A stretch of DNA of 64,000 nt from Mytilus trossulus (Eukaryota): NCBI RefSeq assembly GCF_036588685.1, contig NC_086379.1, positions 77,686,001 through 77,750,000 of the forward strand. The letters run 5' to 3'. The notes under the pieces are model-generated. The model did no database searches. It saw nothing but the letters and a program-made list of their open reading frames with translations, and was not told where the DNA came from. Positions 21,902 through 62,677 of this stretch are shown here, piece after piece (position 1 is the stretch's first letter; every line of letters begins with the position of its first letter). Both the position numbers and the translations under genes were made by a program.

Positions 21902-23672
21902 TTTACAGCATCAATTCAAGTCATGAATTTTTTATAATACAGCTGGTATTTCATATGTTGTTTTTTTTATACTTTCAGTATTTTTATAGGTACTTATATA
22001 GAATAAAACATAAATTCCATTTTAAAAAATGCTGAAGAAGTCATAAAATGATTGACATTCACACCATGTGGCAATCGGTGTTACAAAACACAAATTTTAC
22101 TTTACAAAATCCCATTAGAAACACGGCATGAAAACCAATCGAAACAAAATATACTTTCATCCTGATAATCTTAAAAAACAATTCACAAGCATTATCACTA
22201 CAGAACGTAAATACTTCATTTCTAAAATTGTCACTTTCTCCAGAAAATATAATGTTACATACCAAAAGAGTAAATTTGCCTTTATATGCTTGTTTCTTTT
22301 TAACACAAACTCGTAAAAGTTTCAAATTAAACTTTTCAATAATAAAAAGTCTTTTAAATTTTGTCAACCGATTGAGTAGTTTTATTAAAATAACATGCTG
22401 TATTATATATGTATCATATTTATAATATATATTTTATATTTACATAAACATGTTAATATAAAAAGTTTTGCATCATGTTATCATATAATTTTTTAGAAAA
22501 AAAAAATGAACGTAAAACTGTATAATGTATTTTGTGTATAATTTGCTGTATTTGGCAAGACTTTTTGGAATTTTGGTCCTCGATGCTCTTCAGCTCCGTT
22601 CTTTATTTTACCTTTTTTACTTTTTTGGATTCGAATGCACTGGTGGGTCTTTAAATTGAGGACTTGAATTTTGAATGGAAAATCTCCACAAAAATTACCA
22701 GATAAAACTGAATTCTAAATTGAATTTAGATGTATCTGGATCTAAGCGATTCAGATTTGTACTTAAGCAACAGCACTGAGATATTAATCATTCCAACTCA
22801 TCCCATTCCATGTATATCGATTTATTCTTGACTACCAATTTAACGTTTGCTGAAAATTTACATTTATTAAATTGTATCCGATTAACATAACTTTCAAGAT
22901 AATATAACAATTTAGTAAAATTCATTTTATCTTTGTTTCGCCATCTTATATTCTTCTCAAAAAAAATTGTGATATATGAAAAAAAAAACTCATATATTGA
23001 TGACAACCATTGCTTAATCACAAGATTCCGTGATTAAGATTAAAGCCACACGTGACAAAGAAAACATTATACACCAAATGATTAGCTGTATTATCGACGA
23101 ATACACAACAGTCACATATCCTTTAATTCATGTTTAAAGAGTAGAACAATATTAATTCTGTACTGTATCAATAATTCAATATTTGTTTCTGAATACTTGT
23201 ATTGTGTTTATTTTAAATGTCACATTTTTCTTTACTTAATTGATTTTCTTATACATTTTTACTGATATAATGTTTCATATTTTGATAACTGTTTTAGGCA
23301 AGATTGATACAACAAAGGTGTCAATGTTGGTCCCTTTTGGGAGATATTTTGCTACAACAGGGTCATACATAACATTAAGGACATTAATTAAAAATACAAA
23401 GCAAACTTAATTATTTCGTGTAAATTGAACATTTTAATTATATGTTGAAATAAATCATTTTGAACTGATAAAATATAAACGGGCTATGAATCTATACAAG
23501 AAGTTAATTGTGTAATCTATGTTGACAAATGGTTTGGAACGATCATAAATTGAAAAAAAACCGTTAAAACAATGAAAGTATTGTATATCCCACATTTTGT
23601 TGTTTCATAAAAATTAATAAAAAAAAGATTTAATTTAAGAAATAATGCAGAAAAGGGTAGTCTAATGTCAAA

Positions 23673-24137
23673 ATGAGAAACCAAAGGATAATTTACAGAG
23701 GCCCGGGATTTGCACCTCTATCCAAAAGTGTTAACATCGTCAACTATGAGTACTTTCCAGAATATATTACTTACATTCCTAAAGCACCTGCATTTAGAGC
23801 AGCTTCTGGTGACAAGATTAATGAGATGGTGGAAAGATTAAGCACTCCATCATCATCAGCTAGCAGAAGAAGCAGCAGCAATAGGGAACCATCCATAGAT
23901 AAAAAGGGCATCGTTCAATCATCACCGGTAGACTGCAGATTAAATATTCTTAGACTGAACCAACCAACTGTATCAAGCTATATAAGATTTCAGATGAGAA
24001 GCAGAAAGGATCGATTGATCAATGTTGAGGATATAAGGAATTCTTGTGATAAATATAACAGGCATCCTCCACCAGGATATGTACAAGCGAGGTATAGGAA
24101 CTGGTTGACTGTAGAGGGACATACACTCTGGAATTAA
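23673..24137 (+). CDS. Uncharacterised basic protein, paralogue 2 (154 aa, single exon)
   Basis: Same conserved blocks (YEYFPEYITYIPKAPAF, VERLSTP, RLNQPTVSSYIR, IRNSC, HPP, YRNW); AATAAA about 170 nt downstream. Confidence 0.87.
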   Translation: MRNQRIIYRGPGFAPLSKSVNIVNYEYFPEYITYIPKAPAFRAASGDKINEMVERLSTPSSSASRRSSSNREPSIDKKGIVQSSPVDCRLNILRLNQPTVSSYIRFQMRSRKDRLINVEDIRNSCDKYNRHPPPGYVQARYRNWLTVEGHTLWN

Positions 24138-27087: not shown

Positions 27088-27717
27088 TTAAATTAGCGAA
27101 AGTGTTTTGGTTCTATTTAGTTATTTGAAAGCGAATACATCATAAAAGTTAAATTGTAGCTTGAACATAATTTACTTTGCCTTACAGAAACCAAAGGAAT
27201 ATGGATTAGATTCTGAGAACAATCCCTATAAATCAGAGCGATAATAAAAATAATAAAAACATTTCTCGAACTCATCGCACAGGCACCTTATATATGAATG
27301 TGTTAATGATGAGTGTCATTATCACTTTGTTTGTGATAATAATATTATTTCAAAACTCAGAAAGAAATACATTTCTAAATATTAAAATATTGCAAACACT
27401 TCTGTACTGAAAATGCAAAACTTGATGTTTGTTATTTATCAATAAGCGGTCTTCTCTAATCTAGTTAGATACATAAATAGTTTAGAACTCTTTATAGTGC
27501 AAATTTCATAAAGTATTTTTTTCTGATTTTTCTTTATGTTATTCTGTCATTTAGTGTTGTCAATAAGAACGTTGTCCTACTGTTACATATTTTTGTGTCT
27601 ATTTGTATAAAAAGAATTGAAAAGAACTGATTTTAATTAAGACAAAGGTTTTGTAGTTGCTCATACTACATAATAGTTTGATTAAAACGAAATTTTGATT
27701 GCCTTTACAACATTGTT

Positions 27718-27811
27718 TTATTCGAGCGTCACTACTGAGTCTTTTGTAGACGAAACGCTCGTCTGGCGCAAATATACAATTTTGATCCTGGTATCTATGA
27801 TGAGTTTATTT
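27718..27811 (+). mobile_element. Retrozyme 3' fragment with mutated hammerhead
   Basis: CTACTGA-GTCT/AGAC-GAAA-CGC...GCG-CA followed by the cctggtatctatgatgagtttattt terminus. Confidence 0.8.
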
Positions 27812-28994: not shown

Positions 28995-29603
28995 TCATAT
29001 ATCATAATCTAACGAGTCTAAACTACTTTTGTTGGTATTTGTTGATAGAAAGCTAGATCTCATACTTTTCGAACCATTTACATTCAACCAATTCTTATAC
29101 GCCATTGGAAAATACCTTTGAGATGGTGGTAAATTAAGTCTGTCACAAGCATTTGTAATTTCTGTTACCTTCAATTTTCGTTGATTAGCACTCCTCATTC
29201 GTAGCCTGATTTTACTTGCTACTGTTGGCTGACTTAATCTGTCAACGCTACAATTTTGAGATTCATATGACGACGGCTCTGGGTGTAGAGATTTTATCTC
29301 CGATTCAGTTTCCAATTTAGGAGTTCGCATCCGAGGTGTGTATAATCGTTTAGATATTTCTGTCGCTTCACTTCCCGACACAGTTCTGAATGCGGGTGCT
29401 TTTGGGATGTATGCCTTGTATTCCGGAACATATTCGTAGGTGATTAAACTAGTTTTAACATCCACAAAAACAGGCTTTCTGCCACATTTTCGATGATTTT
29501 CTACTTTCCGTTTCATTGTCCTGTTCTCTAATGAAATGTTTGTGCTGTAAATATTCCTAATGTTGTGTTTCTGAACAGATTGATACCCTGTACTGAAAGC
29601 CAT
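28995..29603 (-). CDS. Uncharacterised basic protein, paralogue 3 (up to 202 aa from the first ATG; start uncertain)
   Basis: YEYVPEYKAYIPKAPAF, KRLYTP, DRLSQPTVASKIR, ITNAC, YKNW. The ORF track starts at GTG 29627; the first ATG is at 29603 and an alternative at 29516. Confidence 0.85.
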   Translation of the reverse strand: MAFSTGYQSVQKHNIRNIYSTNISLENRTMKRKVENHRKCGRKPVFVDVKTSLITYEYVPEYKAYIPKAPAFRTVSGSEATEISKRLYTPRMRTPKLETESEIKSLHPEPSSYESQNCSVDRLSQPTVASKIRLRMRSANQRKLKVTEITNACDRLNLPPSQRYFPMAYKNWLNVNGSKSMRSSFLSTNTNKSSLDSLDYDI

Positions 29604-30048
29604 TGCTATCCAACGTAAAAATGTCACAAGTTACAATAAAATAAACATGTGATCTTGTGCAAACATGGATAATTGTGTATCTATTGACTTGATTTTTAAA
29701 ATATTCACTTGTGCGTATAAACTTCCTTATTAAGTGAGTTGGTAAAGGTGAGTAAATGAGAAGATTGCATCACTATCTTCAATTATCAATCACTAAGGAA
29801 AATGTCAAATGGGTTAAGGGTCCTACAATACATGTGTCTATGGTAAAAACAAACAAAAGATAAAGTTTGATAAATAGAAATACAAACATACTTATTAAAG
29901 GTACTATACCATTCTTTATACCAATAAAGGAAAGTTTAAATATTTTTATCAATCGTCCTTCAAGAAAGCAAACTTGTCAGGCTATTTAAGTTAAATGCAA
30001 AATTAGAGAGAAATAACATTCAACAAATCATAGGTGGTTGAGTATCAC

Positions 30049-30517: not shown

Positions 30518-31695
30518 CTTTAGCATGTAATAGATAATGTTAAATGAAAATTTAATAGCTGAACACATAGACGAAAGATGTTAAAGAAACCGAGGGACAA
30601 TTGAAATTCAAAGTAGAAGAAAACAGAAAATGTTCAGGAACAAAAGCATTGTTAGAGAACAAGTAAACGAACCAGAAAATATTTCTTTTGGTGTACCACT
30701 CTGCAGATGGCATAAATGATATGTGTTACCAAGTTGAAAAAAGGGCTATTTTCAATTTCTTATAAATGACTTAGTTTATTAAAACAAACTTGGACTTTTC
30801 ATAAGGGTTTATATTTTCCAAATTTGTTGGATGATAGTACAAATATTACCACATTCCGACTCTGGAGAAACTTAATATGTGTAGAGGTATATATAGGTAT
30901 TCTTGTGGGATAAAACTTATGGTAGGTTTACCCATTAAAAAATACGATAAGTCATGTGTAGTATAATTTATTTATAAAAAAACCAAATACAAAACCATTA
31001 ACAAATAACATGGTAAAAGTTAAAATCAATCTTTTAAATCTGAAAATATAAAGATTTATAATGCATTTAAATCTCACTATGAAAAATAAGAATATACATT
31101 AAAAATACCTATGTTGTCGATAATTTATTTTCATATCTATCGTCATCTACTGTCAATTTAAAAGGAATTTATAAGATGAAAACTTCATAACAATTCATGT
31201 TAACTCGTTTTGATAACTAAAGGGTAAATTGTGGTTAGTATTTGCAGATGAAATAGCAACCAGAAAACAAACAAGAAAGACGTATATAAGACAATATGAA
31301 CTTTAAAGTTTATGTCGTTGCTGTGTAAACTCTTGTTTGTTATGAGTCATTGAGCTCAAATTTTAGATTTTTGGTGTTGAATGCTCTTAAACTTCATATT
31401 GGATTTAGGCCTACTCTCTAACATGTTTGGTTCGAGTCTTAGGTAGACAAAACGCGAGTATGGCGAACTGAATTATATGCCTGGTATCTTTGATGAATCT
31501 ATAAGACAGATGTATAAACTGATTAAAGAGTATAGGAGGATAGGATTTAATATTTCTATGTAAACTTAAAAGAGCATTCTTTGATATGTATATTGGTATA
31601 TGTGTTTTGATATTTAGCATACCTTTATTTTCCTTTTCACACACACACACACGAACACGCATATATAATAACATTTGGCTAATGCGTTACACTTA

Positions 31696-34600
31696 CTATT
31701 TATTTGTAGGTCGACCGTCATCGTCACAAGTAACAGAGTCTGCCCAGTCACAAGTTATTTTCTTTGGATTAAATCTTAATTCACTTGGACATCTATAATG
31801 GAATGTTCGTCCCATATGACATACAAAATATTTATTACAGTTATTTGGGTCTTGAAAATATCCAAATGGTTTTCGTCTACACGAGAATGAGTCTGAAAAA
31901 AACAAAAGTAAATTGAATTGAAATATTTTTTAAATAAAGCAATTGAAAATGGAGCATTAATATTATGTTTTTAAACATATATCCAGAGTTTCCTCATAGT
32001 TTGACAACTGTCGTTCCTGATTTCTCTGGGCCAGCAGTAGAACGGTAGCTTAAATTGGTGTGTTTGATTCTCCGGAATGCCAAATTACGCGGCCATGTCC
32101 TGTCGAAATGGGGGCGTACGTGTAGCGTAAGTGCCAAGCTTTCTGCACATTACATTACCCTTTCAACAACTCTCTAAGGTTCTGAATATACATGAAATAC
32201 ACTCATATACAGTTCATCCGAGTCCATATAGAATCCATAAAAAGAATAATAGTTTAACTATCAAGTGCTCCCTGGTCTAATTCTTCGTTATTTGTCGGGC
32301 TTCCCCTACGTTCCATTTACAGCAAATATTGATTTTAATGGAACTGGAATCATTTTTTAATGATACACTTTGTTCATAAAATGGTATAATTTTATTAAGG
32401 TACTAAAAGTATGGTTGACTCAGGCAAATCATTTAGAATGAAATTCAAAACAGTGTGGCTGTGGCCATTGATTGACACATTAAATTTATCCATTGACTAG
32501 GACAATTTAAGTGAACGTTTGTATGTAACGACCACTGCTCACAATGCACTTTTAAAAGACACTTAAACTATGGGGTCACCAAAGGTTCTCAACACCTAAA
32601 TAAAGTAATTCGAAAAATTAATCAGAAATAACACGATTTTTTGATTTATATCAATTATATAAATCAAAACATAAAGATTATTCCTGATTAATTTTTCGAA
32701 TTATTTTATAATTGAAGGCGTTTAGAAACCTTTGGTGACCACACAGTGTAAATGTCTATAGTAGGTACGTCGTGAACAGTGATCGTTACATACAAACGTT
32801 CACGTAAATTGTCCCAGTCAATAAATGAATTTAATCTGTCAATCAATGGCCACAGCCACACTGTTTTGAATGTCATTCTAATTTAAGTTCAAAATTTAAA
32901 TTGTGAAATACGATGTAGGCAGCAACGTTAGAGAATTGTATAATGAAACTAATAAGTATAACTTAAATATTAGTCAAAGGCGGCATAACTCAATATATTT
33001 ATATTTATAAGGTGACAAACCTGATTTCTTATAGAAATTAATATTGAAATTTAAAAAATACCTAAATACGACCGGGATATATTTATTTCATACATATGCT
33101 TTCTGATATATATACACTTTTGATGTTTTTATGATTGAATTCATTAAATTGCATGGACAATAAATTTAACAATTGTTGATTATACAATGATAGTATTTGT
33201 GTGTGTGTTATGTTACTGAAAGTTAAAAAAAAAATCAATGTAGAAATGCAAAGTGATACCATTGAAACACAAATTACATTTTGACACATTCAACAATTCC
33301 ATCCAATTTTTAAAAGGATTAAAAGACAATTTTACAACAGAAATGATGAACTGTCTTTTTGGATTTTTAGATTCACCTTCACCAGTACTAATAATTAATA
33401 ATTGGAACCCAAGGATGTATAAAAACAAACTTGAACAGTAGAAAAGTAATAAAGAGCATAAAGATAATAGTCAGATAGCTCTAAAGTGACACAAAAGATA
33501 CTTGAATTATTCTTTGATATCATCATAATTACAAAAATACTAGATTTTAAAGATACTACAAAGCGGTGTTTTTTTAATGCGAGTACAACCCCTTTCAATC
33601 ATAATGGATCTGTTGGTCTTCTTTATCAAAAATTTATTACGTGGTTACAATTACACTTTTACTTACATTTTCCGTAAACCATCGCGGTTGGTGCCCAGAT
33701 TGCAGGTGGTGCTATCTTATTGGGTTCGGTTTCGTAGTGTAAATCTGCTGTCCACAACTTTGTAGTAGCTTCCGGTATTGGAGAAAATGTAGTCGGAGTT
33801 TTCATCGTCGTCGTCGTCGTTGCTGTAGTCGTTGTTACTGTTGTTGGGGTTATATGACGAGGTGTTGTTGTCTTCGGATCTATTTTTCTGGTCGTACTTG
33901 ATGTGAGATTTAATACTTTAGTTCTTTCTATATTTTTTAATGTTGATGATAATGCATGTGTCAGAGGAAATGGTACTACTGATGATGAGCATGTTTTACT
34001 GAAGTCATCCAGGGATAGAGACCAGACCATGCTACCACCATATCCTTCTCTAGCTATCCATTCTGCCTACAATTAATACAGTTATACTGTTGAATAGTAA
34101 TTTGGTTGGAGATGATTCACATTTCGTATGAGTCAAACTGGGATTTTATTCATTCAAAGCATTAGAAATTGTGTAAACAGAACAAAATCTATCTTGGTTT
34201 TTGCTAGTATGTATAAGGCTCCGTGTTGAAGGCCGTACTTTAAATTATATTGGTTTACTTTTAAAAAATTATGACTTGGATGGAGAGTTGTTTCATTGGC
34301 ACTCATGACGAGGTAACAGTAGTCAATTGGAAGAAGTTTGCAATAAATATAGTAAAAAAAAACAGAATATATGTCTTCAGTGATCTGGTAACGGTTTCAT
34401 TAGCTGCAAATAGCGAATAAATGTAAAACAAACTATCAAACACTCGATATTTTGGCGTCTGCTCGATGTTACAGCTGGTGATGTCCTAGACCTTGAAAAG
34501 TTTAAAATAACATAGGTTTCTTGTTTAAAAAATGTCTGTTCATTTACTATATTTGGCTTTATAAGAGGGTTGATCTCTGGTACGCCACTTTTAAGCACCT

Positions 34601-37600
34601 GGATATTGAATTTACCTTAGTTCTCACGCTGTCCTCGTCGTCATAGCCGATCCACAGATCTCCTTTCACATAGTAAGGCACCATTTGTTCTTCATCTCTG
34701 TATACCTTACCTTGGCCGTCTTTTTGCAACTGACATATCTAGTTTGATATAAACAATATAAATTAAGGTTGTATAAATTTCTCTTTGTGTATTAGACAAA
34801 AACAATATAGCATAAAAAAATACTTGCATCAACAGTTAACAAAATTGAAACAAGACTATTTGGCCTTGAATGTTTGCCCCTAATATTTTATTAACTGTGC
34901 ATTTGCATTCAGATATCGGAGATAAAATTTATTGGTTCATAGTGTATTAATTTACGTTTTTTGATTGAGTTAAGCCTGCCAATTGATATTTTATCGTGTG
35001 TTGTCTATGTTGTGATGTTATGCTTTGGTTTCCGGAAAAAGGGAGAAGGTTTGGTACCATTAAAACGTTTAATCCCGCTGCAAATGTTTGCACCTGTCCT
35101 AAGTCAGGAATCTGATGCACAGTACATGTTTCGTTAGTCTCTAGAGAAACTTGAGAAGTTGTTTTGAATTTTCATGTTCGAGTGAACCATTAAACAAGTG
35201 GATTCAATGCATTGTCATAAATGAACCTAGAGTTTTTATAATTTTTGTGCGTCTGTAACACTTTTCTGAATATACCTTCAATGTGAACGTTTAAACCCAA
35301 ACATTCTAAAGCAAGGGAGGTAATAATAAATGAATGTGCGAGTTATACGACAGGAAGTGACCACATGGACCAATCAGTTAGTTGTTCACATGTTGTTTAA
35401 ATATGCTTAGCGTTTATACATTACAAAATGTTCATTTGCTTAATCTAAAGACTTTCTCTTAAATCACTTACATATTTATGTTTTTTGTTCTTATTAGAGA
35501 AACATTTATTAAACATTATTTTTTAATAATTTTTCCATTACTAGAGAAACCTTTTTTCATACAGTTGTCACACATAAATTTTTATTCATGAAGATTCAAC
35601 AAAGACGTTATAGTAATATACCTCGTAATATGAATAAAATCCTATTTCCTGAGTAAATGATCCTTTTGGACCAGGTCCGGTGACAGGTGCACCGATACCA
35701 AAATCATTGACTGGATCTGCCAGAACAAATGACCGACCATACGTTGCTATTCCAATGTTGAGTTTATGTTTAGGTGTGCCCTTAGAAACCCAGTACTTTG
35801 CTGCTTTCTCCTGAAAAAATATAGTCTTTACAATAAAAGAAATCTTATGGTTTTTCACAGAAAAATAATTCTTACCGTATTTCAAAGTAAAGTTGTAATT
35901 GCTATAAAAATGTGTATACAAATAACTATTGTTAAAAAAATAAATAAAATGTTTAGTCAAAGCGGACAACATTGAACTTAAATACATTGTACCTTTATTT
36001 TAACTGGAAAATCTTAGACTTCTAGTTTATATAAATGTATATAATTTCTGTGTTCCTATTTTAGTGTCATTTTAGTTTTTTGATTGAACGACGTCCAGTC
36101 CTGCATATTTAGTGTTTGAAAAGACGTATGACATGACACCGGTTGACATGACACTATATAATATTATAGTAATACTATAATATTATATAGTGTCATGTCA
36201 ACCGGTGTCATGTCATACGTTTTTTCAGTTCATACATGTGATTTTTCAAAACTCTTTCAAACTAATCTAACATTTTCTAAATTTAGGTTTATTCAGTACA
36301 CCAATGTTTTAAGTAATTGTCACGATGTTCTTAAAATTGACATTTGTAAATATGTATGGAGCTTGTAAAATATCTCACCCATGTTAATTTATTTTGTTTG
36401 TAAATGTATAAAACTAGAAAAACTATCTAAGACAATTAACCCTCATGTTTTTCTTTAAACTTTAATTCCATTTGACAAATTAAATAAATACCATAGAAAG
36501 TAATCAGTTTCATTTGTACAACGGGGTTTAATCATATGTGTTTGAAGCTATCGTTATAAAACAAAATATTTTACAATAGATATTGCTGCTGCAAAGCTAG
36601 CATTTTTCTATGATTATTCAGTCGTAAAACCATGCCTATATAATGCAGTCACACCACTGACAATTGGGCAATTCTTGTTTGGTTTTGTGTGGAATCAGTG
36701 TAATTATGTTCTTTTACTCTTTCTAAAACGCGTATATGATTCCAAGCCAGTTTTTAATGCCTTGTTTCTGTCTCTTGTCTTAATTTTATAGTGCTTTTAT
36801 TGTATTCTATTTTAAAATTGGTTGCCTCCTTATGAGTTTTTCATCGACATTTTTGGTTTCCGTGTAATATGGTTTATTAACTCCACAATTTCCTCAGTCA
36901 TAATAACTTTCCATCATTACCGAACTGAACAAAGAAATAACACGACGGGTGCCGTATACGGTACAGGAAATGATTATGCTTACCCTTCAGGGGCACCTGA
37001 TTTCACTCCCGTTTTTAGTGGAGTGCGTGTTGTTACTTATTTATTATTTTTAACTGTTGATGTAAATGTCCCTTGATTTTGTGAGTCTTAGTTTACTCCT
37101 TGGTGTTGATTGTTATTGTCTCCTCTGATAACATATCATATCACGATATTCACTTGGCAAGGATTACAATAATAACATATCATATCACGATATTCACTTG
37201 GCAAGGATTACAATAATAACATATCATATCACGATATTCACTTAGCAAGGATAACAATAATAACAATATCATATCACGATATTCACTTGGCAAGGATTAC
37301 AATAATAACAATATCATATCACGATATTCACTTGGCAAGGATTACAATAATAACAATATCATATCACGATATTCACTTGGCAAGGATTACAATAATAACA
37401 ATATCATATCACGATATTCACTTGGCAAGGATTACAATAAAAACATATCATATCACGATATTCACTAGGAAGGATTATATTACGATAATGTTCCCTGTGA
37501 ACATGAGGGGTTGGACCTTATCTTTTGGCTTACGAAGAAGCATAACACGAGTCTGCTGTTTTGATGTTTTACAATATGATTAAGCAAAGACTTACGGTGT

Positions 37601-40600
37601 TCATGTTAGCAGAACCAGTATCCTTGCTGCTACCAAACAATGGACTATTATGACCTGTTTTCCTTTCCCATCCGCCATGAAAATCGTATGACATTAAGTT
37701 TAGAAAGTCCAAATATCTGCAATAATGAACATTTAAAATTAGGCATGTTTTATGATTATGTAAATTCGTGTTTGCATAATTAAACAAATGATATCATTTG
37801 ATAATTTCCCGTTCCTAGAAAACTGATCAAAAGCTAAGTTGGTTTGACAATTTCATTTTAATAAATATTGGTATAATATATGTTTTGTTGACACAGAAAA
37901 AAAGTAAAAAGGTAATGTTGTAAAAGGGTACAATTATCAATTTAAAACTATTGATAAAGCCCAGACTAAACTGGTTTTAACTGATTCTGCTTTTGTCGTA
38001 GACTGGTGTTTGATTATAAACGGGTGCATTTCTATGTCATCGTTTTGTCGGCCATGGTTTTGCTTTGCTTAAGCATTTAGGTTCAACCGTTAACTCACTA
38101 AAATTTTGAATCATCATCTACGTGGATATGTCGGAAATGTTTAGAGAAGAAGTATATACAATTACAAACCTAATAAATCAAGTACAATAAAAAAAAAAGT
38201 CACGGCAGTATGCCAAGGAGGAGTATTTGTAATTTTTAAAATTATCTTTACTATTGTTGTAAAGTCTTTCAACCACTCTTTCGGTTGTGTGTGATTTGTT
38301 TGAAATGTTTACTAATATATTTAACGCTCTGTAAAATGCGCTTTGTGTGCAGTATTTATTTACGATTCAAATATATACCCTTACTTAGATATTTACGATT
38401 CAAATATATACCCTTACTAAGATAATGTTGGTATAACTGAAACCTTTACACCTTTCCACTTCCGCTGAGACTAGTAGTTGTTGAGACTGTACGCGGTGCA
38501 TACAATGTGTTTTTTAATATGATTTTACTCACTTAGATAGTGTTGGTGTATCGTAAACCGAATATTAAACATTTCTACCAATAGGAGCAGCAGCTTATGA
38601 CTATGAGTTGTGTACCGTGTTTTTTTTTTATGATTTAGGTATGTATTATACTTGCTTAGATAGTGTTGGTATATCGTATCCCGAATCTACCACCTTTCTA
38701 CCAGTAGGTACCGCCGCTGAGACTAGTAGTCTACGACGTAAAGATTTCTGTGCCTCCATATCAAAAGCCTCTTTAATTTCCTACATCAAAAATAGAACAA
38801 GCATTGAAAAGCTGTAATTGTTGTAAAATGGATCTTGATGATACTAATATTATTTTCGGGGAATGACCATTTTATTTTTTTTGGAAGAGAGAATGAGTAA
38901 ATAACTTTGCACAAGGGTGAATTAAAATGAATATTCAGCAACACAAAATGAATGAATCAAATATGTGCAAAAGTGAAAAGATGCATAGCAACAGATGACA
39001 ACAATTGATCAATCCAGGGGAAACTATCCTACCTTCACCCCCTCCTTAAACCAAAAGCTTGGTCCCTTATTATAATGAGACGAAAAATAAAAAAAAATAA
39101 TAATAAATATGCATTTTAAAAGTAAAATAACAAAAATACTGAACTTAGAGGAAACTCAATTCGGAAAGTCCATAAGCACATGGCAAAATCAAATAACAAA
39201 ACGCATAAAAAACGAATGGACAAGAACTGTCATATTCCGGACTTGGTACAGGCATTTACAAATGTAGAAAATGGTGGATTAAACCTGGTTCTATAGCGCT
39301 AACCCTCTCACTTTAATGACAGTCTTATCAAATTCCGTTATATTTACATTGATGCGTTAAATAAACAGACACAATAAATAAAATATTCAAAATATGGGTA
39401 CATCAGTCATCATCGTATAACAATTTTAAAAGGAACAATTTAACAGAACAGAAAAGCATCTACTATCTACGAACACATTGATTGATTTGAGTGTCTGACG
39501 TCACAAATTGCTTTATACGTCACATAAATTTGTCGTTCAATGTGCATACAAACAATTTTAAAATTTACATAGGCAATGTTAGCATACAGGTGTAAAAAAA
39601 AAAGTATGTAAGAATAAATTTGAGAAATAGACCGAGATTTAAACTAGTATAGTTAATTCCACTACACGATTGAATGATTATGACGTTTTTGGTTCAACGT
39701 ATATAGTAATTCATAATAGAAATATATCATTATGACATATAATAGAACAATATCATACTGACGGGATCTTTTAAAGTACAGAGTCACGTTATAAGAACAA
39801 AAGAAATACAAAAAGTCGCATATAGAAAACAAACCACCAAAAAATGAAAGCCAATACAAACACATAGACGAGATGTATAAGTACCGAGCCACGTCAAACG
39901 GATATCACATAAAACCATTCAACAGTAAAAGTAATATTAATAATAGAACAAAGACAAATGAAAGAACAATGAAACACGTTGTTAAGATGATAAACAATAT
40001 CAGTACGCAGAATCTATACACCAAGACCATCGTGTTTGATACGGAATAGTTATCAACAAGGTCTTAGTACCTTCCGATGTTAAACGATGTTAAATAAAGG
40101 CAAAAGTAGTATACCGCTGTTCAAAACTCATAAATCCATGGACAAACAAGAATGTGTCCTCAGTACACGAATGCCCCACTCGCACTATCATTTTCCATGT
40201 TCAGTGGACGGTAAAATTGTGGTAAAAACTCTAATTTGGCATTAAAATTAGAAAGATCATATCATAGGGAACATGTGTACTAAGTTTGAAGTCGATTGGA
40301 CTACAACTTCATCAAAAACTACCTTGACCAAAAACTTTAACCTGAAGCGGGACAGACGGACGGACGAACGGACGCACAGACCAGAAAACATAATGCCCCT
40401 CTACTATCGTAGGTGGGGCATAAAAACAAAATTGGGGTAACAAACTACAACCGAGGGAAACGCTAAAACTAAATTCAAAGTTGAAGGTTGTAATGAGAAC
40501 AGCACAAATTTAGTGGAATGAAAATAACTTGAATTACCTTAAGAAGGAGGGCAAAGTTAGGTTTATCCTCCATTTTCCCTTGTCTGAGAGTTGGATATTC

Positions 40601-43600
40601 CCAGTCGATATCTAATCCATCAAAGTTGTGTTTACGTAAAAATTCCATCGTAGACATTATGAACGTCATCCGGTTTTCTGGCGTCGCCACCATATCAGAA
40701 AAAGCTTTACTGCCTGCATTCCATCCACCTATAGCTAACATTGTCTTAACTCCTCGTGTTTTATTCTTTTTACCATTGAATTCTTTATACCTGAAAACTC
40801 AAATAAATAACAGTCAATTAAATTATATAATGTGTATCAATGATTTAAATTATATTTTAATCATATATTTTTGTTTTGATATGTATTAGAACAAACGGTT
40901 TTGGTCACAATTAAATCTTCATAAAATATATATTACGCATAGAAATGAATGGATATGCCATCTTTTAATTGCCATCTTTATTAAAAGATATAATTTTCGC
41001 TGATGACTGCATAAAATAATACATTTTGTTTGGTATTGTATGGTTGGCCATCTTTGTTCGCATAACAATGTGAAACAAAACACAAATTGAATGTTTACAA
41101 TTATTTGGCTTTTTAACTATTTTGATGTGAGCGTCACTGGTGAGTCTTCGGTCTGGCGTATCAAAAATATAAGATAATTATATGTGTTTGTAATGTCAAA
41201 AATAACTTACAACTTTTCATCATTGTACTCTGTAAACACAAGTTTCTTGCCTTCCAATCTAGCAAATGCATAAACAATATGTGTACAGAGATCTGGGTTG
41301 ATATTGTCAGGTGTAAACTTGGCGCCATTGTTACGATACTGGGCCCAGTTAGTGAAGTAGCATATTCGTCGAAAAGTCTTTATTTCTGAAAAAAGAAAAA
41401 CTTACTCAAAGTCTACTTCCAATCAAACATAAACACGAGATATTTTAGTTGTTTTACTGTTAGAAGACATTTCTTCCAGAAAAGCTACTGCTGATCTTAA
41501 CATACAACTTAGATCTTTGGAAACAAAAATAGTTCTCAAAATGCATTTTTTTCTTTTGTCAATTGATGATAAACTCTAAGGGGATGAATTTAAGCTGCTT
41601 TTGAAATATTTACCGAACGTAGAAATAGGAAAATACATGCTGATGGTGTCTATGCATAGATCACAAAAATTGCTTGAATCTTAGATATACTACTAGGTTG
41701 ACTCTTTTTGTAAAAGAAAAGAGGAACGAAAGATACCAAAGGACAGTCAAACTCGTAAATCCAAAACAAACTGACAACGCCATGGCTAAAAATGAAAAAG
41801 ACAAACAGAAAAACAATAGTACACATGACACAACATAGAAAACTAAAGAATAAACAACACGAACCCAACCAATAACTAGGGGTGATCTCAGGTGCTCCGG
41901 AAGGGTAAGCAGATCCTGCTCCACATGCGGCACCCGTCATGTTGCTTATTTGATTACAAATCCGGTAAATAGTATAATTCGGTAGGTCAAATTCATGAAA
42001 GGGAAGGGGATTGTAGTTACGACGTAAGGAAAATATCCGATATCATTTGTGAAAGGGTTATTCCATAACGGTCAACCAACTCGTGATGGCGTTCGTAAAA
42101 TTTACGAAGGGATGATTGTAAATGTTCTTACCCTGTGTTGTCAGCTATGTAATCAGTGTTTCGGTACTGAGATGTTTTATTGAATATTTTTCTTAAATTT
42201 TGGAAAGACAAAATGTATTAAGAAAATAGATTCACGAGTCACTCAGAAAAATTTGTCCTTACTGAAATGTGTTTGGCTATTAGTGTTTTGTCCCTATTGG
42301 TCATCCCGTGTTTCGAAACTTTTACATCTTTGGATTCTATTATTAGGCCGCAGGTGTTTCTGATAAAGTTAATCCAGAAAAGCGCTTCTGAGTTTTCTCG
42401 TTTGAATTGTTTTACATTGTCTTATCGGGGTCTTTTATGGCTGACTATACGGTATGGGCTTTGTTCGTTGTTGAAGGCCGTACGGTGACATATAGTTGTT
42501 AATGTCTGTGTCATTTTGGTCTTTTGTGGATAGTTGTCTCATTGGCAATCATACCACATCTTTTTTTATAAGATTACTAAGGACCAATTTTATATTTTTT
42601 ATTACCACATTGTTCATCTGTCCCATCTAAACAGTCTTGATCACCATCACAGACAAAGGCATTGTTCACACAGACTCCATTACTACACTGAAAATTATCA
42701 TCCGGGCATCTTCTCGTGTTATCGTCTGTTCTTGCTAAAATATATCAAAATTAATCATGCTTTTTGTATATCTTTAACTGATTCACTGTCTTTATCGACC
42801 AAAATTTAGCCTCCAAGTCTTTTCCAAAAATATGTCACGAAACTCGTTAATTTTAGAACCAAACTATGCACTTGGAAAATCCCAATGCAAAGGTATCGCG
42901 CTTCTACTGCTGCCAAATGTCACTATTTGCGGGAGCTTTCACCCATGGAAGCTCCCAAATGGAAACTATGTGAGCGATTTGTGTCCACCATTTTAAACAA
43001 AACAGTTAATTTAACAATGCTATAGGCTTTTAAAAGTATGTAGAAGCAAATAAAAACAACATTAAAATACATTTGTAAGCCCACTTGAAGGTTTTTTAGG
43101 ACTACAAAAGAGTCCTCCTGTACGTATACATGGCGATTTGAAAAGTTTTCATGTAAGCTACTGCTATGCATCTGCCTACGAATAAAAAAATCCCTGCACG
43201 ACCGTCTAAAGCAAAGGCCAACACATCTCACTGTAATTTCACACGAAGCAAAAAACAATGCAAGTTCAAACGGCGTTTAAAATCCATCAAATAGGATGGG
43301 GTATAAGTGAAAACTGGATGGGGTATAAGTGAAAACTCGACAACAGTCAATTCGTCCTAACAAGAATCTAAGTTTAATCTAGAATTTGATATAAAAGTGA
43401 TATATGACTTACGACAGGATTGTTCATCTGAACTATCAGAGCAGTCTGGATCATTGTCACACACCCATTGTTTCGGTATACATGTACCAGTCTTACATCT
43501 GAATTGTGTTTCTAAGCAGTCTTTAAGTTAAGAAAAAACGTTCATTAATATATAATCACTGTCTGTAAATCAAACGATGCTCTCGCCCACTATCAAATCA

Positions 43601-45739: not shown

Positions 45740-45995
45740 GGAATTCATAAGTCATAAATAAACAGACAAAACCAAGATTAAATAAAGACAAATAGACAAA
45801 CAAACAAACAACATTACATAAAACTGGGGTGGTGTTAGGTAAACCGGAAGGGTGAGTAGGGTCTGTGAGCCGGAAGGGTTAGCATGGTCTTAGGTGAGCC
45901 GGAAGGGTTAGCATGGTCTTAGGTGAGCCGGGAGGGTTAGGAGGGTCCACATGTGGCATCCGTCGTGTTGCTCATGCAAGTACAAACACAGTGAT
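45740..45995 (-). mobile_element. Degenerate family 2 tail containing a 29-bp tandem expansion
   Basis: ccgg(a/g)aggg recurs at 45844, 45870, 45899 and 45928 inside sequence matching 41790-41970. Confidence 0.65.
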
Positions 45996-46551
45996 AATTA
46001 GATATAAGAAAATGTGGTATACAACAATTTTGTTAATAGATGTTTAAATTTCTACACTGGCACAAATTAATCTCCGGCGATATTTTTATAGATTAAAATT
46101 AAACGCGCGACAATGCTTATATTTCTATAAAAAAAAATCAGTGGTATACATACTGATCACATAACCTTTTCTACTATTGACTTCGAAAAGGGTTGTGGCT
46201 TGTTTTATAAACAGATGGAAAATCCTTTTTCATGATAGAGATATAAATTTCAATTTATGGACGTAGCTTCTGCTTTTAGGAGATTTGTTTTTAATCGGCC
46301 GTTGTTGTCTTTTTAGATTTTTCTATCTCTATATATCGTCTTATTGTCCGCTTGCTTAAAATGTTGACTAGCTTCAGCCTGGTGACTTCAATACTTGGTT
46401 TTGACATGTAATTGATCATTCAATATATAAAACTCCTACCACATTCATCGAAGATTGATTTTACATCAGTTTTAACGTTGTAATCATTACATTAACCTTT
46501 ACACAATACTGTTGATCTTCTGATAGATTATTCTGTTCACATATTCATTTG

Positions 46552-46948
46552 CTAAATTTAGTCCTGGTATCTATGATGAGTTTATTTACAACCACTGGGT
46601 CGATGCCACTGCCGGTGGAGATTTATTTCCCCGAGGGTATCACAAGCCCAGTAGTCAGCACAAAAAGTGCTGACATGAATTGTCATTGATATGGTTATAT
46701 TTATAAATTTACTGTTTACAAATTTTTGATTTTTTTGAAATATTAAGGCTTTTCTACCTCAGGCATAGATTACCTTAGCTGTATTTGGCAACACTTTTAG
46801 GAATTTTGGTCTAATGCTCTTCAACTTCGTACTTTTTTTGGCCTTTTTAACTTTTTTGGATTCGAGTGTCACTGATGAGTCTTTTGTAGACGAAACGCGT
46901 CTGGCGTATATACTAAATTTAGTCCTGGTATCTATGATGAGTTTATTG
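46552..46948 (+). mobile_element. Full-length non-LTR retrozyme monomer (361-bp period) with terminal direct repeat
   Basis: ctaaatttagtcctggtatctatgatgagtttatt occurs at both ends (gtcctgg at 46561 and 46922); the hammerhead lies just before the second copy. Confidence 0.85.
46858..46925 (+). ncRNA. Type I hammerhead ribozyme with intact core
   Basis: CUGAUGA 46872-78; stem II GUCU/AGAC with loop UUUGU; GAAA 46892-95; stem III CGC/GCG; GUA triplet with cleavage predicted after 46908; stem I AGUGU/AUACU plus distal GGAUU/AGUCC. Confidence 0.85.
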
Positions 46949-47588
46949 TAAACAGTTATTTCAAAACCATAACATTGAGAGAATGTATTTTGGGTCATTT
47001 GTTTATGTCTGTTCTAAAAAATTAATAACTGCAGACGGAGGGGATAGGATAAGAATTGTTTAACCCCTGAAATTGCAAATGTAGTAATCCTGTTCAAGAC
47101 TTTCGTGCTAATTTTGTTGATCATTGAACAGGTTATTACAATCTGGACTCTTCAGTAGAGAAAGATTACTTTCAATGTTAAAATGAAATTTTATTAAAAC
47201 CATATCGAAATTTACGTATTTGACTTAAAAATTCCAATTGCATGCATAGTTTTTGGTAAAAAAATAAGAGCAACCACTTAAAAAATAAATCCTTGTAAAA
47301 TACATTTTGTTGCACAATATAAAAGAGGTTTTACGCTGTCCGTGCTCATATCTAAATATCAACTACAAGATCTCAACTTGAGGCTTTTTTTGCCACCACC
47401 TTTACTAGTAATCTAACGTTAGAATCAATCCAAGATGTGCGAAATGTTTAAAATTGAATTCGAAAAAAAATCCTTTATATAATATGTTCTCTTTAGTGAA
47501 GACCCATCTAGGTTAATGATTATTGCCATTTATCAAAGACACACAATTTATAATGCCATGGCGTTGTCAGTTTATTTTCGATTTATAA

Positions 47589-48554
47589 TAAAATTGAGAA
47601 TGGAAATGGGGAATGTGTCAAAGAGACAACAACCCGACCAAATAAAAAACAAACAACAGCAGAAGGTCACCAACAGGTCTTCAATGTAGCGAGAAATTCC
47701 CGCACCCGGAGGCGTCCTTCAGCTGGTCCCTAAACAAATATATACTAGTTCAGTGATAATGAACGCCATACTAATTTCCAAATTGTACACAAGAAACTAA
47801 AATTAAAATAATACAAGACTAACAAAGGCCAGAGGCTCCTGACTTGGGACAGGCGCAAAAATGCGGCGGGGTTAAACATGATGTTTGTGAGATCTCATCC
47901 CTCCCCCTATACCTCTAGCCAATGTAGAAAAGTAAACGCATAACAATACGCACATTAAAATTCAGTTCAAGAGAAGTCCGAGTCTGATGTCAGAAGATGT
48001 AACCAAAGAAAATAAACAAAATGACAATAATACATAAATAACAACAGACTACTAGCAGTTAACTGACATGCAAGCGCCAGACTTCAATCAAACTGACTGA
48101 AAGATTATGATTTCATCATATGAACATCAGGCACAATCCTTCCCGTTAGGGGTTTAGTATCATACCATTATAACATATATGAGAAGAACATAACCCGTGT
48201 CATGCCAACAACTGTTTTTAGAATAAATGTGTTTAGTTCCGACGCAAAGACCTTATCAGTGACTCAATATTAACGCCAAAATATGCAATCTTTAATGACT
48301 TGACAACAGTATCGTAATTATATCTCTTCTTAATAAGTCTATTCAAAGGTTTTGTAAGTTTCTGAGGTGAATACTGACACCTTTGTGCTTTATACAGAAT
48401 ATTTCCATAAAAAATTGGATGTGAAATACCTGAACGTATAAGAAGTCTGCATGTTGAGCTATATTTACGAATGATGTCTTTATACCGATGATAAAATTTA
48501 GTAAATGTTTTGACTAGTTTGTGATATCGAAAACCCTGGTGTAATAATTTATCA
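47589..48554 (-). mobile_element. About 970-bp element (family 4) inserted into a family 2 tail
   Basis: Flanked by ttataa at 47583-88 and 48555-60; the host tail resumes on each side; short copies of its end at about 51080-51145, 54520-54680 and 55318-55445. Confidence 0.75.
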
Positions 48555-49239
48555 TTATAAGTTTGAATGTCCCTCTGGTATCTTTCGTCCCTCTTTTATA
48601 AAAATCTAGAGTACTAAAGAAACGAGTTTGCCGAATTTTCTGCAAACCACGTGGAGATATAGATTTAGATCGTATCGGTTTTTCTAAAATAATTTCTCTT
48701 ACATGCATCACATTTCATCACTTAATCCCTCGATTCACTCTACTTCTCGAGCTGGATAGGAAGCAGTATAAATGCTTCTATTATCCGCCACAAAATGATC
48801 AGATTAAATAACCAGAACCTTACAAGAAAAACACACAAAAAAGAGCAAATTTTGGTCTGAACAACTGATTTAACTGTCAATTTTAAATTGCTACAAGAAA
48901 ACGCAGTTTTTTGTAAAGTTCTGCTTGAAACTTTGGCTTGTCGCATTATAACTGAAAATCGAAGAAAAAAATATGCATTTGTCGCTTTTATGTAAAGTTT
49001 CTAATACATCTAATTCTATCTTCGACACAAACGCCAAAAAGAAAACAGAATTTAGCAAATCTACAAGTAATTTTTTGCAAGTCTTTTCAAAGTGACAATT
49101 CCATGCCTATATTTTTAGTAAAAGCGAAATCAGACATATACCACCTTAACCATATTCTATCGTCTAATAAAAACATCATCGTTGAGATTCGTTTATTTGA
49201 TGAAATAAGTGAAAAGTCGATATAATCAACGAGACAACA

Positions 49240-52978: not shown

Positions 52979-55193
52979 ATGGGTAGTGGAACAATGACAG
53001 CCAAATCAAAGCGTCAAAGAACTAAATATACCAAGGAACAGGTATGAGATTGATATTTTTGATATCATTTATATTGTGTTACATTGTCCTCTGTCGAAAT
53101 CTCTCAAAATTCTGCAAAGGGAGATTTTCTTTTTGATTCTTTGTGGTTATTGAATGTAAAAGCATTTTTAGGTCTTAATCTAAAAATAACAAAATATACC
53201 TTTACGGAAATCAAACTTTTTCACATAAGATTATTTACTTGTAATTTTAGGCAGTTACCTTTGTTTTGACGTTAAAATAAATAAAATAATCAAAACGACC
53301 GCTTTCTGAATGCATTTAAAATTCTAGATGGAAAACAGGTTGTTCTTTATATTCATATTTGGCAACTTGTTATAGATTTTTTTTCATTTAAAGATTAAAA
53401 CATGAATCTTATTGTTTTCATTATTATAAATGTTGCAAATGAATAAAACCTATATTCTTTATGTTGCTAGCTTGAAGCTTTGGAGAGAGTGTTTATCTCT
53501 AACCAGTACCCAGATTCTCTCACTACAGACGAATTAGCTGATCAGTTAGAAATCTCAAATGAAAAGGTGTCTGTAAGTATGCTTATTCATTTTCATAAAA
53601 AAAATCAGATGATTTCCGGGTCTGAAATATAAAATCGATTTTGCAATTCTAAAAACTAGGTACGGGGAAAATATTTAGAACTTTTCACCTGGTAAAATCG
53701 ATTTATTGTATACATTGACATTGTATTTTCGCGCCGGAATATGTATCGACAGTGGCCTATAACTTCTTACTTCCCCTTTATTCTAAATTTGACTGATGGT
53801 TAGATGTGTCATTAGCAATCATACCACTTCTCCCACTTTTTGATATGTAATATTTGTCGCTGAACTTTAAGTAAACAAAATTTTAATCAATATATTTAAT
53901 TTCCATGTTATATGATGTGTACATAATTTTAAAAAAATGGAATTACCTGAAAGATTCATCAATCTTGTTATTTTGTCACCGATGGCTTAAAAAATACGTG
54001 TTTAAAAAGTTTAATCTCCAAATGACAGCGATATTCTATATTGATTAAAAAGCATCTCATGTTGAATTCGAGTCTGATAAAATTGATATTGTCACTATAG
54101 CAACACAACCAGAAAGACAATCGGTTTAATACAGAGGTCATTTCTTTTTCAGATCTGGTTTCAAAACAGAAGATCTAAGTTTAAAAGACAATACAAGGAT
54201 TCACAAGTTACATGGATGAGAAATCAGATGTATGACCAAGAAAACAGACCGCCAGTTTTAACCATCCCAAGTGAACCGAGACGACCAATGAAGCCAACAT
54301 CTGATATTTTAGGAAGACCACATGTGTTAACAGTCTCGACAGCAAATCACCAACACACCGTTGATAATAAGAAACCAGTTTCAAAGTAAGTTTATCTCTT
54401 AGTAAAATCCCAACAAACGCAGTCATCTGCTGGAAATGTAAAAAATACATGATAAATCTTCAGGTTATACAGCTTAGGCAATAATTGACTTCACTGCGAT
54501 TAAAGCATCAATTTTCATTGAACTAGTACACATTTTGTTTAGGGGCCAGTGGAAACCTGTCTCCAGTGTGGGATTTTTCTCGCTTAGATGACGACCTATT
54601 GGTAGACTTCGGCTGTTTTCTGTCCTTTTGTCGGATTGTTTTGTCTTTGATACATTCTTAATTTCCATTCTCAAATTATACCGTACGTAAAACCAACGAA
54701 AATTGCTTTTTAGATAAGATAACAAAATCACAAGGGTTCGTGTCTTTAATCATTCAACCTACTCATAATATAGAAACAGTAATACATGAATTGAACGGTA
54801 TAATCTTGTTTTAATGTATGTATTATTTAAACTGCTTGCCTTTTTTCTACATTGCACATTTTATTTTTTAGCTTACACTACAAGCCAAATGCTGACGTAC
54901 TGTCCACACCTTTACCATGGGAGCATAACTTTGGATACACAACTCCATCACCACCGTTTGACTATTCGTCTTGTGCAAATGACATTTTGAAAGACTGTAG
55001 TGTGAACCCAGCATCAACAAGACCTGACTATCCAATCGATATACAGTACCGCGGTCATGTGACTCCCCCTGGTTTCTGGTCACCATACGTGACAAGTTCT
55101 ATTCAACCAGCACCTGTTCGATCATGCATGTTTTCTAACTATCCATTTTTTCCGCAAACGCAAGTGACCAATCAGCAGTTGACTTTATTATAA
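52979..55193 (+). CDS. Divergent PRD-class (paired-like, Q50) homeobox protein, 239 aa, 4 coding exons
   Basis: Exons 52979-53041, 53471-53572, 54153-54385, 54872-55193 (720 nt, phases 0/0/2). Homeodomain SKRQRTKYTKEQ|LEALERVFISNQYPDSLTTDELADQLEISNEKVS|IWFQNRRSKFKRQY; intron between codons 46 and 47; Pro/Ser/Tyr-rich C-terminus. Confidence 0.92.
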
Positions 55194-60519: not shown

Positions 60520-62677
60520 ATGACACAAAATGAAGATAACGACAATAGCCATGAAAGCAATATTGGATATTATACCAAAGAGCAACAAGTACTGGTGGAC
60601 AGGTAAAGTGAATTGTTTAATTTAATGCAGCGAGATGTAGGTTTCACAGAAATTGGTCCGTGTATATTTGCGTTCAATCGGTTTTCGTTTTGAAATGTGT
60701 TAATGTGAAAGTGTTTTCGTTTTTCATTTTTGATTTTTCGAAAACCAAAACGGAAAACGGAAGTGTTGATAGCCACGAAAACAATGCAACAACAAGTACT
60801 CGTGGACAGGTAAAGTGAATTGTTTTTGATGATATTATTTGTAGGTTTCACTGACAGAGATTGGTCCGTGTATATTTAGCTAAACTAGAAGTGAAAAACA
60901 AAAACAAATACTTAAACATAGTAAAACACTTTCTTTTTTCCTTAATTTGATATCTGAATTCAAGTGATATTGGTAACCTCACTAAAGATATACATAGGCA
61001 TAGTATTTACACGTCTTCAACATATGAATGAAACCAACATCATGTGTGATCGACGTTTCTCTGCCATCTCCGACTTTGATAAGTTTTGAATGGAAATAAA
61101 CTCATAATAGATACCAGGTTTAAATTTTGTAATTACGCCAGACGCGCGTTTTCGTCTACAAAAGACTCATCAGTGACGCTCGAATCCAAAAAAAAATAAA
61201 AAAGACCGAATCGAAAAAAGTTGTATTAAAAGGTCAAATCAAGAGCATTGAGGACCAGAATTCCTCAAAGTATGCCAAATACATCTAAGCCAGTAATCTA
61301 TTCCTGAGGTAGAAAAGCCTTAGTAATATCAAAAATTCAAAAGTTTTGTAAACAATTAATTTAGAAATAAGACCATATCAATGATAATGTATGTCAGCGC
61401 ATAACTACTGGACTGGTGATACACTCGGGGAATTAAAACTACACCAGCAGTGGCACCAAACCAGACTCAGTGGTTGTAAATGAACTCATCATAGATACCA
61501 GGATTAAATTTTGTAATTACGCCATATGCGCTTTTCATCTACAAAAGACTCACCAGTGACGCTTAATTCCAAAAAAGTTAAAAAGGCCGAATCCAAAAAA
61601 GTTAAAAGAACAGACAGAAGTTTTTTTATACCATGAAAATAAGTTTTGTTAGTAATTTGCTCTGTTATCATCTACCACAAGAGATACTCTCAATTAATCA
61701 GTATGTTATCTCAAAAATTATCAGTTTTTCTTTCAATTTGAGTGTGAATAAATGTTGAATCTCAATTTGACATAATACATAAAATTGGAAATAGTTTTTT
61801 TGAATCGTTTTAATAGGACATTAGCCTATCAAGAATGTATGTATTACGACATCCTTGAAGTTCCGAGACGGTCACCTATAGAAGTTATATCAAAGTCGTA
61901 CAGGAGGCTGTCTTTACAACTACATCCTGATAAAAACAAAGCACCAAGAGCAGAGGAAGCATGCAAAGGTACCAGATGTCTAAGTCAGATGATCTATTTA
62001 ATGTATATGTACCAGCTTTTCTATAAAAGCATGCAAAACAAAACTTTGTCCGACTTGCTTGCTATGTTTGCTTGGATGTTGGCAATAGGTAGGCGTAATT
62101 TCAGTCTGTTTGATATATGCTGGGATTTGATTGGAAAATAAAAATTGACATACAATGTGAAACCTACCTTGAAATGAAGTTTATATTTATTGTCCAATCA
62201 AAGTCCAGTATATAGTAAACAGACTACTTACCTGCTGTTTCCAAACATTCAAACAAACATAGCAAACAATGCGACTCTGCTGCTTAATGTTATGTTGAAT
62301 ATATTTTCCAGTATTTAAAACTACCATGTACTAATTTGAGGCGAAAAAAACAGAAAAATGCTGTCTCTTCTATTAAGTACGTTGAAATTGTGTGTCATGG
62401 ATTGATAAACGTCTCCTTTATTTGCCATCCGAAATATATTTTATAAGATGCATTCGTTAAGGAAAGTAATATCAGAATCTGAAGCAGAGCATTCTTCTAT
62501 TCGAATATAGTATAAGCATTTTATACATCATAAGCATGTAATGATTATTTATTTAAGTGATAAACAACGCTTATGACAAACTGAGTGACACAGAGGGTAA
62601 ACATCTATATGACACAGTAGAGCTACCCAAAATTGAAGAACTCTTGAGACAAAGGAACAGGTCTCATAGTTATCCAG
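60520..62677 (+). CDS. Short DNAJB12/14-like J-domain protein; 3' end uncertain, possibly a pseudogene
   Basis: Exons 60520-60602, 61817-61968 and 62558-62677 in phase (2/1): MTQNED...GYYTKEQQVLVDR|TLAYQECMYYDILEV...RRLSLQLHPDKNKAPRAEEACK|VINNAYDKLSDTEGKHLYD; HPD motif intact. Confidence 0.75.
61098..61610 (-). mobile_element. Retrozyme, about 1.3 monomers (384-bp period), two hammerhead motifs, antisense in the DnaJ intron
   Basis: Reverse complement of the 46.5-kb element; cores at 61134-61173 (CUGAUGA...GAAAA, one extra A) and 61518-61556 (CUGGUGA, mutated). Confidence 0.85.

Follow-up and report, generated by a model that had tools for sequence, protein, structure and literature searches.

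A dispersed 1.1-unit retrozyme copy in Mytilus trossulus and the common 3′ end of its family

The interval 46552–46947 on the plus strand holds a real, non-chance element, which is almost certainly a copy of the retrozyme class. It lies in a 64,000-nucleotide stretch of contig NC_086379.1 of Mytilus trossulus, hereafter the window, whose numbering is used throughout. The explanation we consider the best, and reasonably probable as a whole, is a dispersed copy of 1.1 units, likely of the published mussel retrozyme, whose RNA would be cut after a GUC triplet and whose insertion was likely the work of a borrowed reverse transcriptase that copied a circular RNA. The copy itself is likely a real but ordinary, damaged member of an already known kind and a dead-end insertion.

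Architecture of the element and its family

The copy consists of a 361-bp unit and a 35-bp terminal repeat, and was delimited by the repeat spacing, by its relatives and by read and contig depth confined to the interval. The two copies of the repeat, 46552–46586 (+) and 46913–46947 (+), match exactly over 35 bp at a spacing of 361, in agreement with a preliminary description of a non-coding 361-bp unit bounded by a direct repeat of about 35 bp. By comparison, the longest exact repeat in 100 shuffles of the 3.5-kb neighborhood was at most 15 nt; the longest exact repeat of the real neighborhood, at 38 nt, is a 29-bp tandem at 45830–45947 that is separate from the retrozyme copy. Relative to the position of the GUC cut, the 5′ repeat begins 11 nt downstream, and the 3′ repeat, or tail, ends 44–46 nt downstream, at the common 3′ end of the family. 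A reading of the 35-bp repeat as a target duplication was rejected, as the repeat is family sequence.

The region has a GC content of 0.33, and only two short stop-to-stop frames (60 and 84 amino acids) overlap the unit; none of the frames examined in the unit is an ORF large enough for a telomerase-like reverse transcriptase plus a GIY-YIG endonuclease. The size of 361 bp, the low GC, the lack of coding capacity and the type I hammerhead core all fit the metazoan non-LTR retrozyme unit (170–400 nt, GC below 50%), and the class originally assigned, a metazoan non-LTR retrozyme with a type I hammerhead and of a kind already known, is borne out by this non-coding, low-GC, multicopy unit of ~360 bp. 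Folding of the unit is only modestly better than that of shuffles (z −2.11; 2/100). In addition, the unit contains an 8-bp hairpin at 46654–46674 (+), with a 5-nt loop AAAAA in the reference copy and TTTTT in most crossing reads (at 46662, for instance, in 45 of the 46 X24 reads). The one loop is the exact reverse complement of the other, and the difference is likely a micro-inversion between the 8-bp inverted arms.

The window contains 11 other copies or fragments of the family, which together with the copy at 46552–46947 account for ~3.6% of its bases. Moreover, five marine-metagenome contigs (L001–L005) carry the exact hammerhead core, and in one of them, L002, the sequence is arranged in tandem and belongs to a second subfamily; the copy statistics given below rest on the window and these five loci. 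Over the whole unit, the copy is 79% identical to the window sequence at 61511–61095 (−) and 81% identical to L002. About 70,000 contig records in each of two contig sets match 46250–47250, and pattern scans of viral contigs and prokaryote genomes gave 0 matches.

Two further family members in the window have a composite structure. The sequence at 61095–61591 (−) is a 1.3-unit tandem with two ribozymes, of which the downstream one passes the type I descriptor with an extra A and the upstream one is altered in its core; the 5′ end of this tandem is marked by a short duplication. At 19408–20007 (+), the tail of a decayed retrozyme copy has expanded into a 31-bp satellite with 18 copies; the satellite (19440–20002) starts right after a ribozyme remnant and ends at the common 3′ end of the family. 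Internal skips are many in the DNA contigs covering the family.

The family is transcribed, as observed at the level of the family and not of this locus. Two RNA runs gave 3974 and 2512 reads on the element, with all depth within 46522–46963. No RNA read lies on the flanks of 46552–46947 in the 6 and 18 in 100 of these runs that were read, and the animals may lack the insertion. First mates in X21 are more often minus than plus (762 versus 175 at 46624–46657), and those in X24 are symmetric. The X21 excess would represent ribozyme-sense RNA if the library was of the dUTP type, its strandedness not being on record, and the reads concerned carry mostly letters of the second subfamily. No RNA-only circle junction was seen in the reads: the back joints also occur in DNA contigs and are indistinguishable from those of tandem copies. 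Circle tests made without locus-specific primers would mislead.

The element is located between two genes, one on the minus strand, with exons of LDL-receptor-like and chitinase type traced up to 43.5 kb, and a homeobox gene on the plus strand, traced from 53.4 kb onwards. The former (33659–43520, −) has multiple exons, those of LDL-receptor class A-like type lying upstream of those for a GH18 chitinase, and the homeobox exons of the latter (53471–54389, +) are split within the homeodomain. Other dispersed repeats lie near the element at 45830–45947, 41650–42042 and 47590–48230, one of them with the local 29-bp tandem, and arrays of 89, 45 and 51 bp are present at 30049, 37128 and 58507, respectively. 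Three mutually similar single-frame ORFs of 135–211 amino acids (YEYVPEYK..IPKAPAFR) are found at 21503–21910, 23661–24137 and 28995–29630, and the last of them, the one scanned, has no match in Pfam.

At 48233–48595 (−), 1.3 kb from the element, lies a fragment from the C-terminal end of a reverse-transcriptase ORF that shares 93% identity with P0001. Its longer relatives carry a DKA motif and end without a C-terminal endonuclease; PMC8557442 gives the DKA motif for Naiad Penelope-like elements. The closeness of this fragment is no evidence for a role as mobilizer. A likeness of 48245–48263 to the ribozyme core was dismissed, the segment lying in the last codons of a retroelement ORF and being no hammerhead by the descriptor.

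Ends of the copies and the route of insertion

The 3′ ends of the family were compared among the other copies with a usable 3′ end, leaving out L002 and L004, which reach the end of their records; three of the five locus-derived copies in this count (L001a, L003a and L005) had been found by the ribozyme-core pattern. The 3′ ends fall at the equivalents of 46946–46953 in four of the 11 window copies and in seven of the 16 copies overall, with binomial probabilities of 7e-5 and 3e-8, respectively, for an 8-nt interval in a 361-nt unit. The window copies ending there are those at 61095, 27810, 31502 and 20007, the last after satellite expansion, and those from the loci are L001 and two copies in L003; the other nine of the 16 end elsewhere. 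The common 3′ end thus defined is ~45 nt (44–46) past the cut, and the clustered ends run at most 6 nt into the next turn. Reads as well as contigs have loose ends behind 46947, in 350, 335 and 197 records, with consensus agreements of 0.42, 0.41 and 0.39, respectively, and thus with mixed sequence. No second cluster of ends near 46912 is present among the 16 copies, and a second copy with a 35-nt overhang was not found.

By contrast with the fixed 3′ end, the 5′ ends of the other copies are scattered and do not pile up at the cut. In this respect the preliminary description, in which the 5′ boundary was placed within ~4 nt of the cut and taken to mark it, fails: the 5′ boundary of this copy is 11 nt after the GUC cut, and the end that is fixed in the family is the 3′ one. 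Target-primed reverse transcription usually leaves copies of this polarity, fixed at the 3′ end and variable at the 5′ end. Judged from the positions of these ends, the copies quite likely arose by reverse transcription from a fixed internal start. Moreover, two short copies, at 27688–27810 and 31361–31502, cross the cut site, which together with a fixed end past the cut points to a template with an intact junction, either a circle or an uncut multimer, and not to a doubly cut monomer. Between these two templates, we lean slightly towards the circle.

In the route that we favor, an AT-rich site would be nicked by a reverse transcriptase-endonuclease whose probable source is a Penelope-like element. 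Reverse transcription would start at a fixed internal position ~45 nt past the ribozyme junction, proceed through the junction of the circular RNA and once round, and stop 35 nt into the second turn, which would leave a 1.1-unit copy. We put forward the more specific form of this proposal tentatively: a Penelope-like reverse transcriptase may cut an ATT-containing target and start ~45 nt past the circle junction, which would account for the constant 3′ end, the 5′-truncated and more-than-unit copies, the 35-bp tail and a 3-bp duplication.

At the insertion site, a possible 3-bp target duplication, TTG, is present at 46549–46551 on the left and at 46946–46948 on the right, where TT also fits the element end as microhomology. 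In X15, a 1387-nt contig (depth 73.2) aligns to the right flank, beginning at 46946 and leaving 147 nt unaligned, and a second piece, equal to it in depth, aligns to the left flank from ~46471 to 46548. Over ~240 nt, the flank of the contig shows 17 letter differences and 15 gaps. If the right and left pieces belong to one contig, they would represent an empty allele together with a TTG duplication beside ATT. The empty allele is an apparent one, deduced from the two pieces; the joint across the site is not among the 15 joints listed, out of a set with 421 more. A blind search for a long duplication at the insertion yielded nothing beyond a 7-nt match at a distance of 47 nt. Separately, 46946–46973 is 79% complementary over 28 nt to 46694–46721; this inverted likeness is probably chance in AT-rich DNA and possibly a target preference.

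The strongest competing explanation, which we regard as unlikely, retains the same family and the same fixed internal start but takes a linear multimer, uncut or cut once, as the template. The 5′ end would then be close to the upstream cut, with 11 nt lost, and cutting by the downstream ribozyme would have failed, perhaps through a prior loss of 2 nt. Such a template would be in keeping with the Anolis Penelope-like element, which according to the text of PMC11167929 uses mainly uncut RNA in vitro and whose ribozyme mutants insert normally. No more than 11 nt separate the 5′ end of the present copy from the position of the cut, and tandem copies do exist (61591–61095 in the window, and L002). 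However, the scatter of the 5′ ends away from the cut speaks against it, as does the composition of mussel RNA, which consists mostly of circles, with linear forms from under 5% to 25%, as described in the text of PMC7229834.

It is improbable that the copy is a remnant at the DNA level, namely an array reduced by deletion or recombination, or a product of gene conversion, in which case the 35-bp repeat would be uninformative on reverse transcription. The family does rearrange at the DNA level, as the internal skips in contigs and the 31-bp satellite demonstrate; nevertheless, such a history fits poorly with a fixed 3′ end and variable 5′ ends, with the apparent empty allele and with repeat copies that are identical over 35 nt.

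Hammerhead core, cleavage register and damage

The hammerhead core is found at 46872–46895 (+), and the core nucleotides are present where the preliminary description had located them: CUGAUGA at 46872–46878, a 4-bp stem II formed by 46879–46882 and 46888–46891 with a 5-nt loop, and GAAA at 46892–46895. The 5′ arm of helix I (46866–46871, +) pairs with its 3′ arm (46902–46907, +), and the GUC triplet at 46899–46901 (+) is followed by the predicted cut after C46901, at which the reads show no piled ends. Helix III is represented by a 6-nt palindrome at 46895–46900 (+), consisting of one A-U pair and a CGCG loop. The type I descriptor matches the window at 46872 and 61173 (−), compared to 0 of 100 shuffled windows, and finds one site in L002. 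A search with the Rfam model Hammerhead_1 had been named as a check; no Rfam model matches at the gathering score, and the only hit is a sub-threshold match to Hammerhead_3 at 46863–46901 (22 bits, E 0.23, cut-off 48.5).

The preliminary description placed the cut after a GUA triplet, at A46908, with a CGC/GCG stem III and an extended, bulged stem I. With a contiguous 5-bp helix I, the descriptor accepts GUC 46899–46901 only, and not GUA 46908. In the reference copy, helix I of the GUC register has six of six contiguous pairs and helix II four of four, whereas the GUA helix I, when unbulged, pairs at one of seven positions. The helices were further compared across 10 aligned copies, many of them decayed, after three heavily decayed copies had been left out. 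Helix I is paired in 57 of 60 cells (95.0%) in the GUC register versus 34 of 60 (56.7%) in the bulged GUA register, the 3′ arm of which varies freely between copies; helix II is paired in 97.5% of cells. The triplets themselves do not decide, with GUC in seven and GUA in six of the 10 copies. The GUC arrangement also agrees with the canonical metazoan type I layout given in the text of PMC4209133, in which helix I has 6 bp, helix II 4 bp and helix III 1–2 bp with a small palindromic loop. Resting on these comparisons, the cleavage triplet of the family is very probably GUC 46899–46901, with the cut predicted after C46901.

Five changes occur in the GUC helix I, all one-sided and all keeping the pair, and no two-sided change was found in either register among the 10 copies, many of them decayed, so that no covariation is seen; against a shuffle control, the GUC structure was not superior (138/500; n = 10).

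Energy calculations on the reference copy rank the two registers in the opposite order. The GUA fold, at −6.8 kcal/mol, is lower than the GUC fold at −4.0 or +1.7 kcal/mol, and is the lowest-energy hammerhead-like fold of this copy. Its pair probabilities are 0.69–0.99, except for the core-closing pair A46871–U46909 next to the cut, which has a probability of 0.01 and is followed by a bulge. In the GUC register, the pair probability of helix I is 0.0 in the reference copy, and closing helix III costs +1.7 kcal/mol; in monomer folds, helix I reaches a probability of at least 0.5 in only two of nine other copies. In dimer folds, the GUC helix I forms between two molecules in five of 10 copies, and only one of 10 (L002b) has the full double hammerhead as its best fold, with a modeled energy of −31.5 kcal/mol for L002b versus −16.1 kcal/mol for the reference copy. 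Unconstrained folding yields no hammerhead, and RNAalifold recovers neither register, showing instead a competing hairpin. The hairpin with the CGC/GCG stem III can form across the family (78.9% of cells), and in our reading it competes with the ribozyme as a misfold in which the 3′ arm of helix I is masked. Together with the bulged stem I, the CGC/GCG stem III is a structure that can form and is lower in energy in the reference copy, but the two fail at the core-closing pair and in pairing across the family. Altogether, an intact ribozyme cutting after GUA 46908, with the 5′ end of the element marking the cut, is very improbable.

Nor is the ribozyme intact, as had been supposed. Helix III, at 46895–46900, is 2 nt shorter than in all nine other aligned copies, although the palindrome is kept. 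A CG insertion behind 46895 is carried by 365 of 1557 reads in X21 and 246 of 1073 in X24, for which the count crossing without CG is not stated, and the longer form of helix III is also present in 385 and 287 loose ends behind 46899 (X21 and X24, respectively). A helix III able to close in the monomer, like that of the rest of the family, was not found in the reference copy. In addition, position 46867 is T in the reference, compared to C in 1286 of 1422 X21 reads and 832 of 995 X24 reads; a U-G pair thereby replaces the C-G pair of the family, which weakens helix I. The ribozyme of this copy is damaged in both helix III and helix I, and it is predicted, with fair probability, to be a weak, poor cutter.

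The locus holds one ribozyme only, since the beginning of the 5′ repeat is already 11 nt beyond the cut. A transcript could consequently be cut once at most, and no unit-length RNA or circle would come from this locus alone. The corrected cleavage site matters for bench tests, as mapping a cut after A46908 would mislead.

Comparison with known systems and implications

In Mytilus galloprovincialis, ~5000 type I hammerheads in two families with 350–390-bp repeats, and circRNAs MN642551–MN642576, were described by Cervera and de la Peña (2020; text of PMC7229834); tandem mussel units self-cleave at ~0.1 per min and accumulate as circles. The present family resembles this retrozyme, as there described, in its 361-bp size, low GC, non-coding nature, type I hammerhead, two subfamilies, high copy number and abundant RNA. 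It differs in that the copy studied here is dispersed, with 1.1 units, one ribozyme, no tandem array and a helix III that is 2 nt short. In the literature searched, outside subscription journals and Repbase, neither a constant 3′ end nor a tail was found described in animal retrozymes; the text of PMC7229834 mentions none, and its figures may already show the ends and the cleavage site.

The family is likely the published Mytilus retrozyme, matched by unit size and by the two subfamilies; the hammerhead sequence also appears to agree with that of the mussel element.

The axolotl and newt hammerhead HHR_Amex1 has a helix III of one pair with a palindromic tetraloop, and 6% of it is cut in 1 h as a monomer and much more as a dimer (text of PMC7229834). 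The reference copy likewise has a single-pair helix III with a palindromic tetraloop. However, this layout is family-wide in Amex1, where loop 1–loop 2 contacts are described, whereas here it is a deletion relative to nine of nine copies and there is no partner ribozyme at the locus.

Penelope-like elements, according to PMC11167929 and PMC8557442, start reverse transcription inside the RNA downstream of a hammerhead, cut at ATT and have 30–40-bp tails, the length of which is set by two neighboring start sites of reverse transcription. The retrozyme family shares with them partial tandems, 5′ truncation, a hammerhead upstream of the internal start of reverse transcription and an AT-rich target with ATT; the 35-bp overhang of the copy at 46552–46947, a single case, fits their 30–40-bp terminal extension. 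By contrast, the unit has no ORF and no reverse transcriptase or GIY-YIG domain, and its hammerhead layout is canonical, not the minimal layout of Penelope-like elements with a 7–8-bp helix II (text of PMC4209133). Since it has no ORF, the element at 46552–46947 is not a Penelope-like element, and no sequence link between the unit and an autonomous element was found.

Penelope-like elements were proposed, without a test, as the mobilizer of mussel retrozymes in the text of PMC7229834, and there and in that of PMC7761336 two questions were left open, namely which retroelement moves the retrozymes of animals and whether it copies them from circles. On its own, the copy is of little importance, being one of probably thousands in a class already cloned and, as those texts describe, shown to cleave and to form circles. 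The shared 3′ end matters more than this copy, as it is a property of the family. If the proposed route is true, it would provide direct genomic evidence for a mobilization route that those two papers only proposed, and the RNA stretch for recognition by the enzyme would be the equivalent of 46902–46990 on the circle. Confirmation of the fixed internal start across the genome would open both questions to assays that combine purified Penelope-like protein with an RNA of defined sequence.
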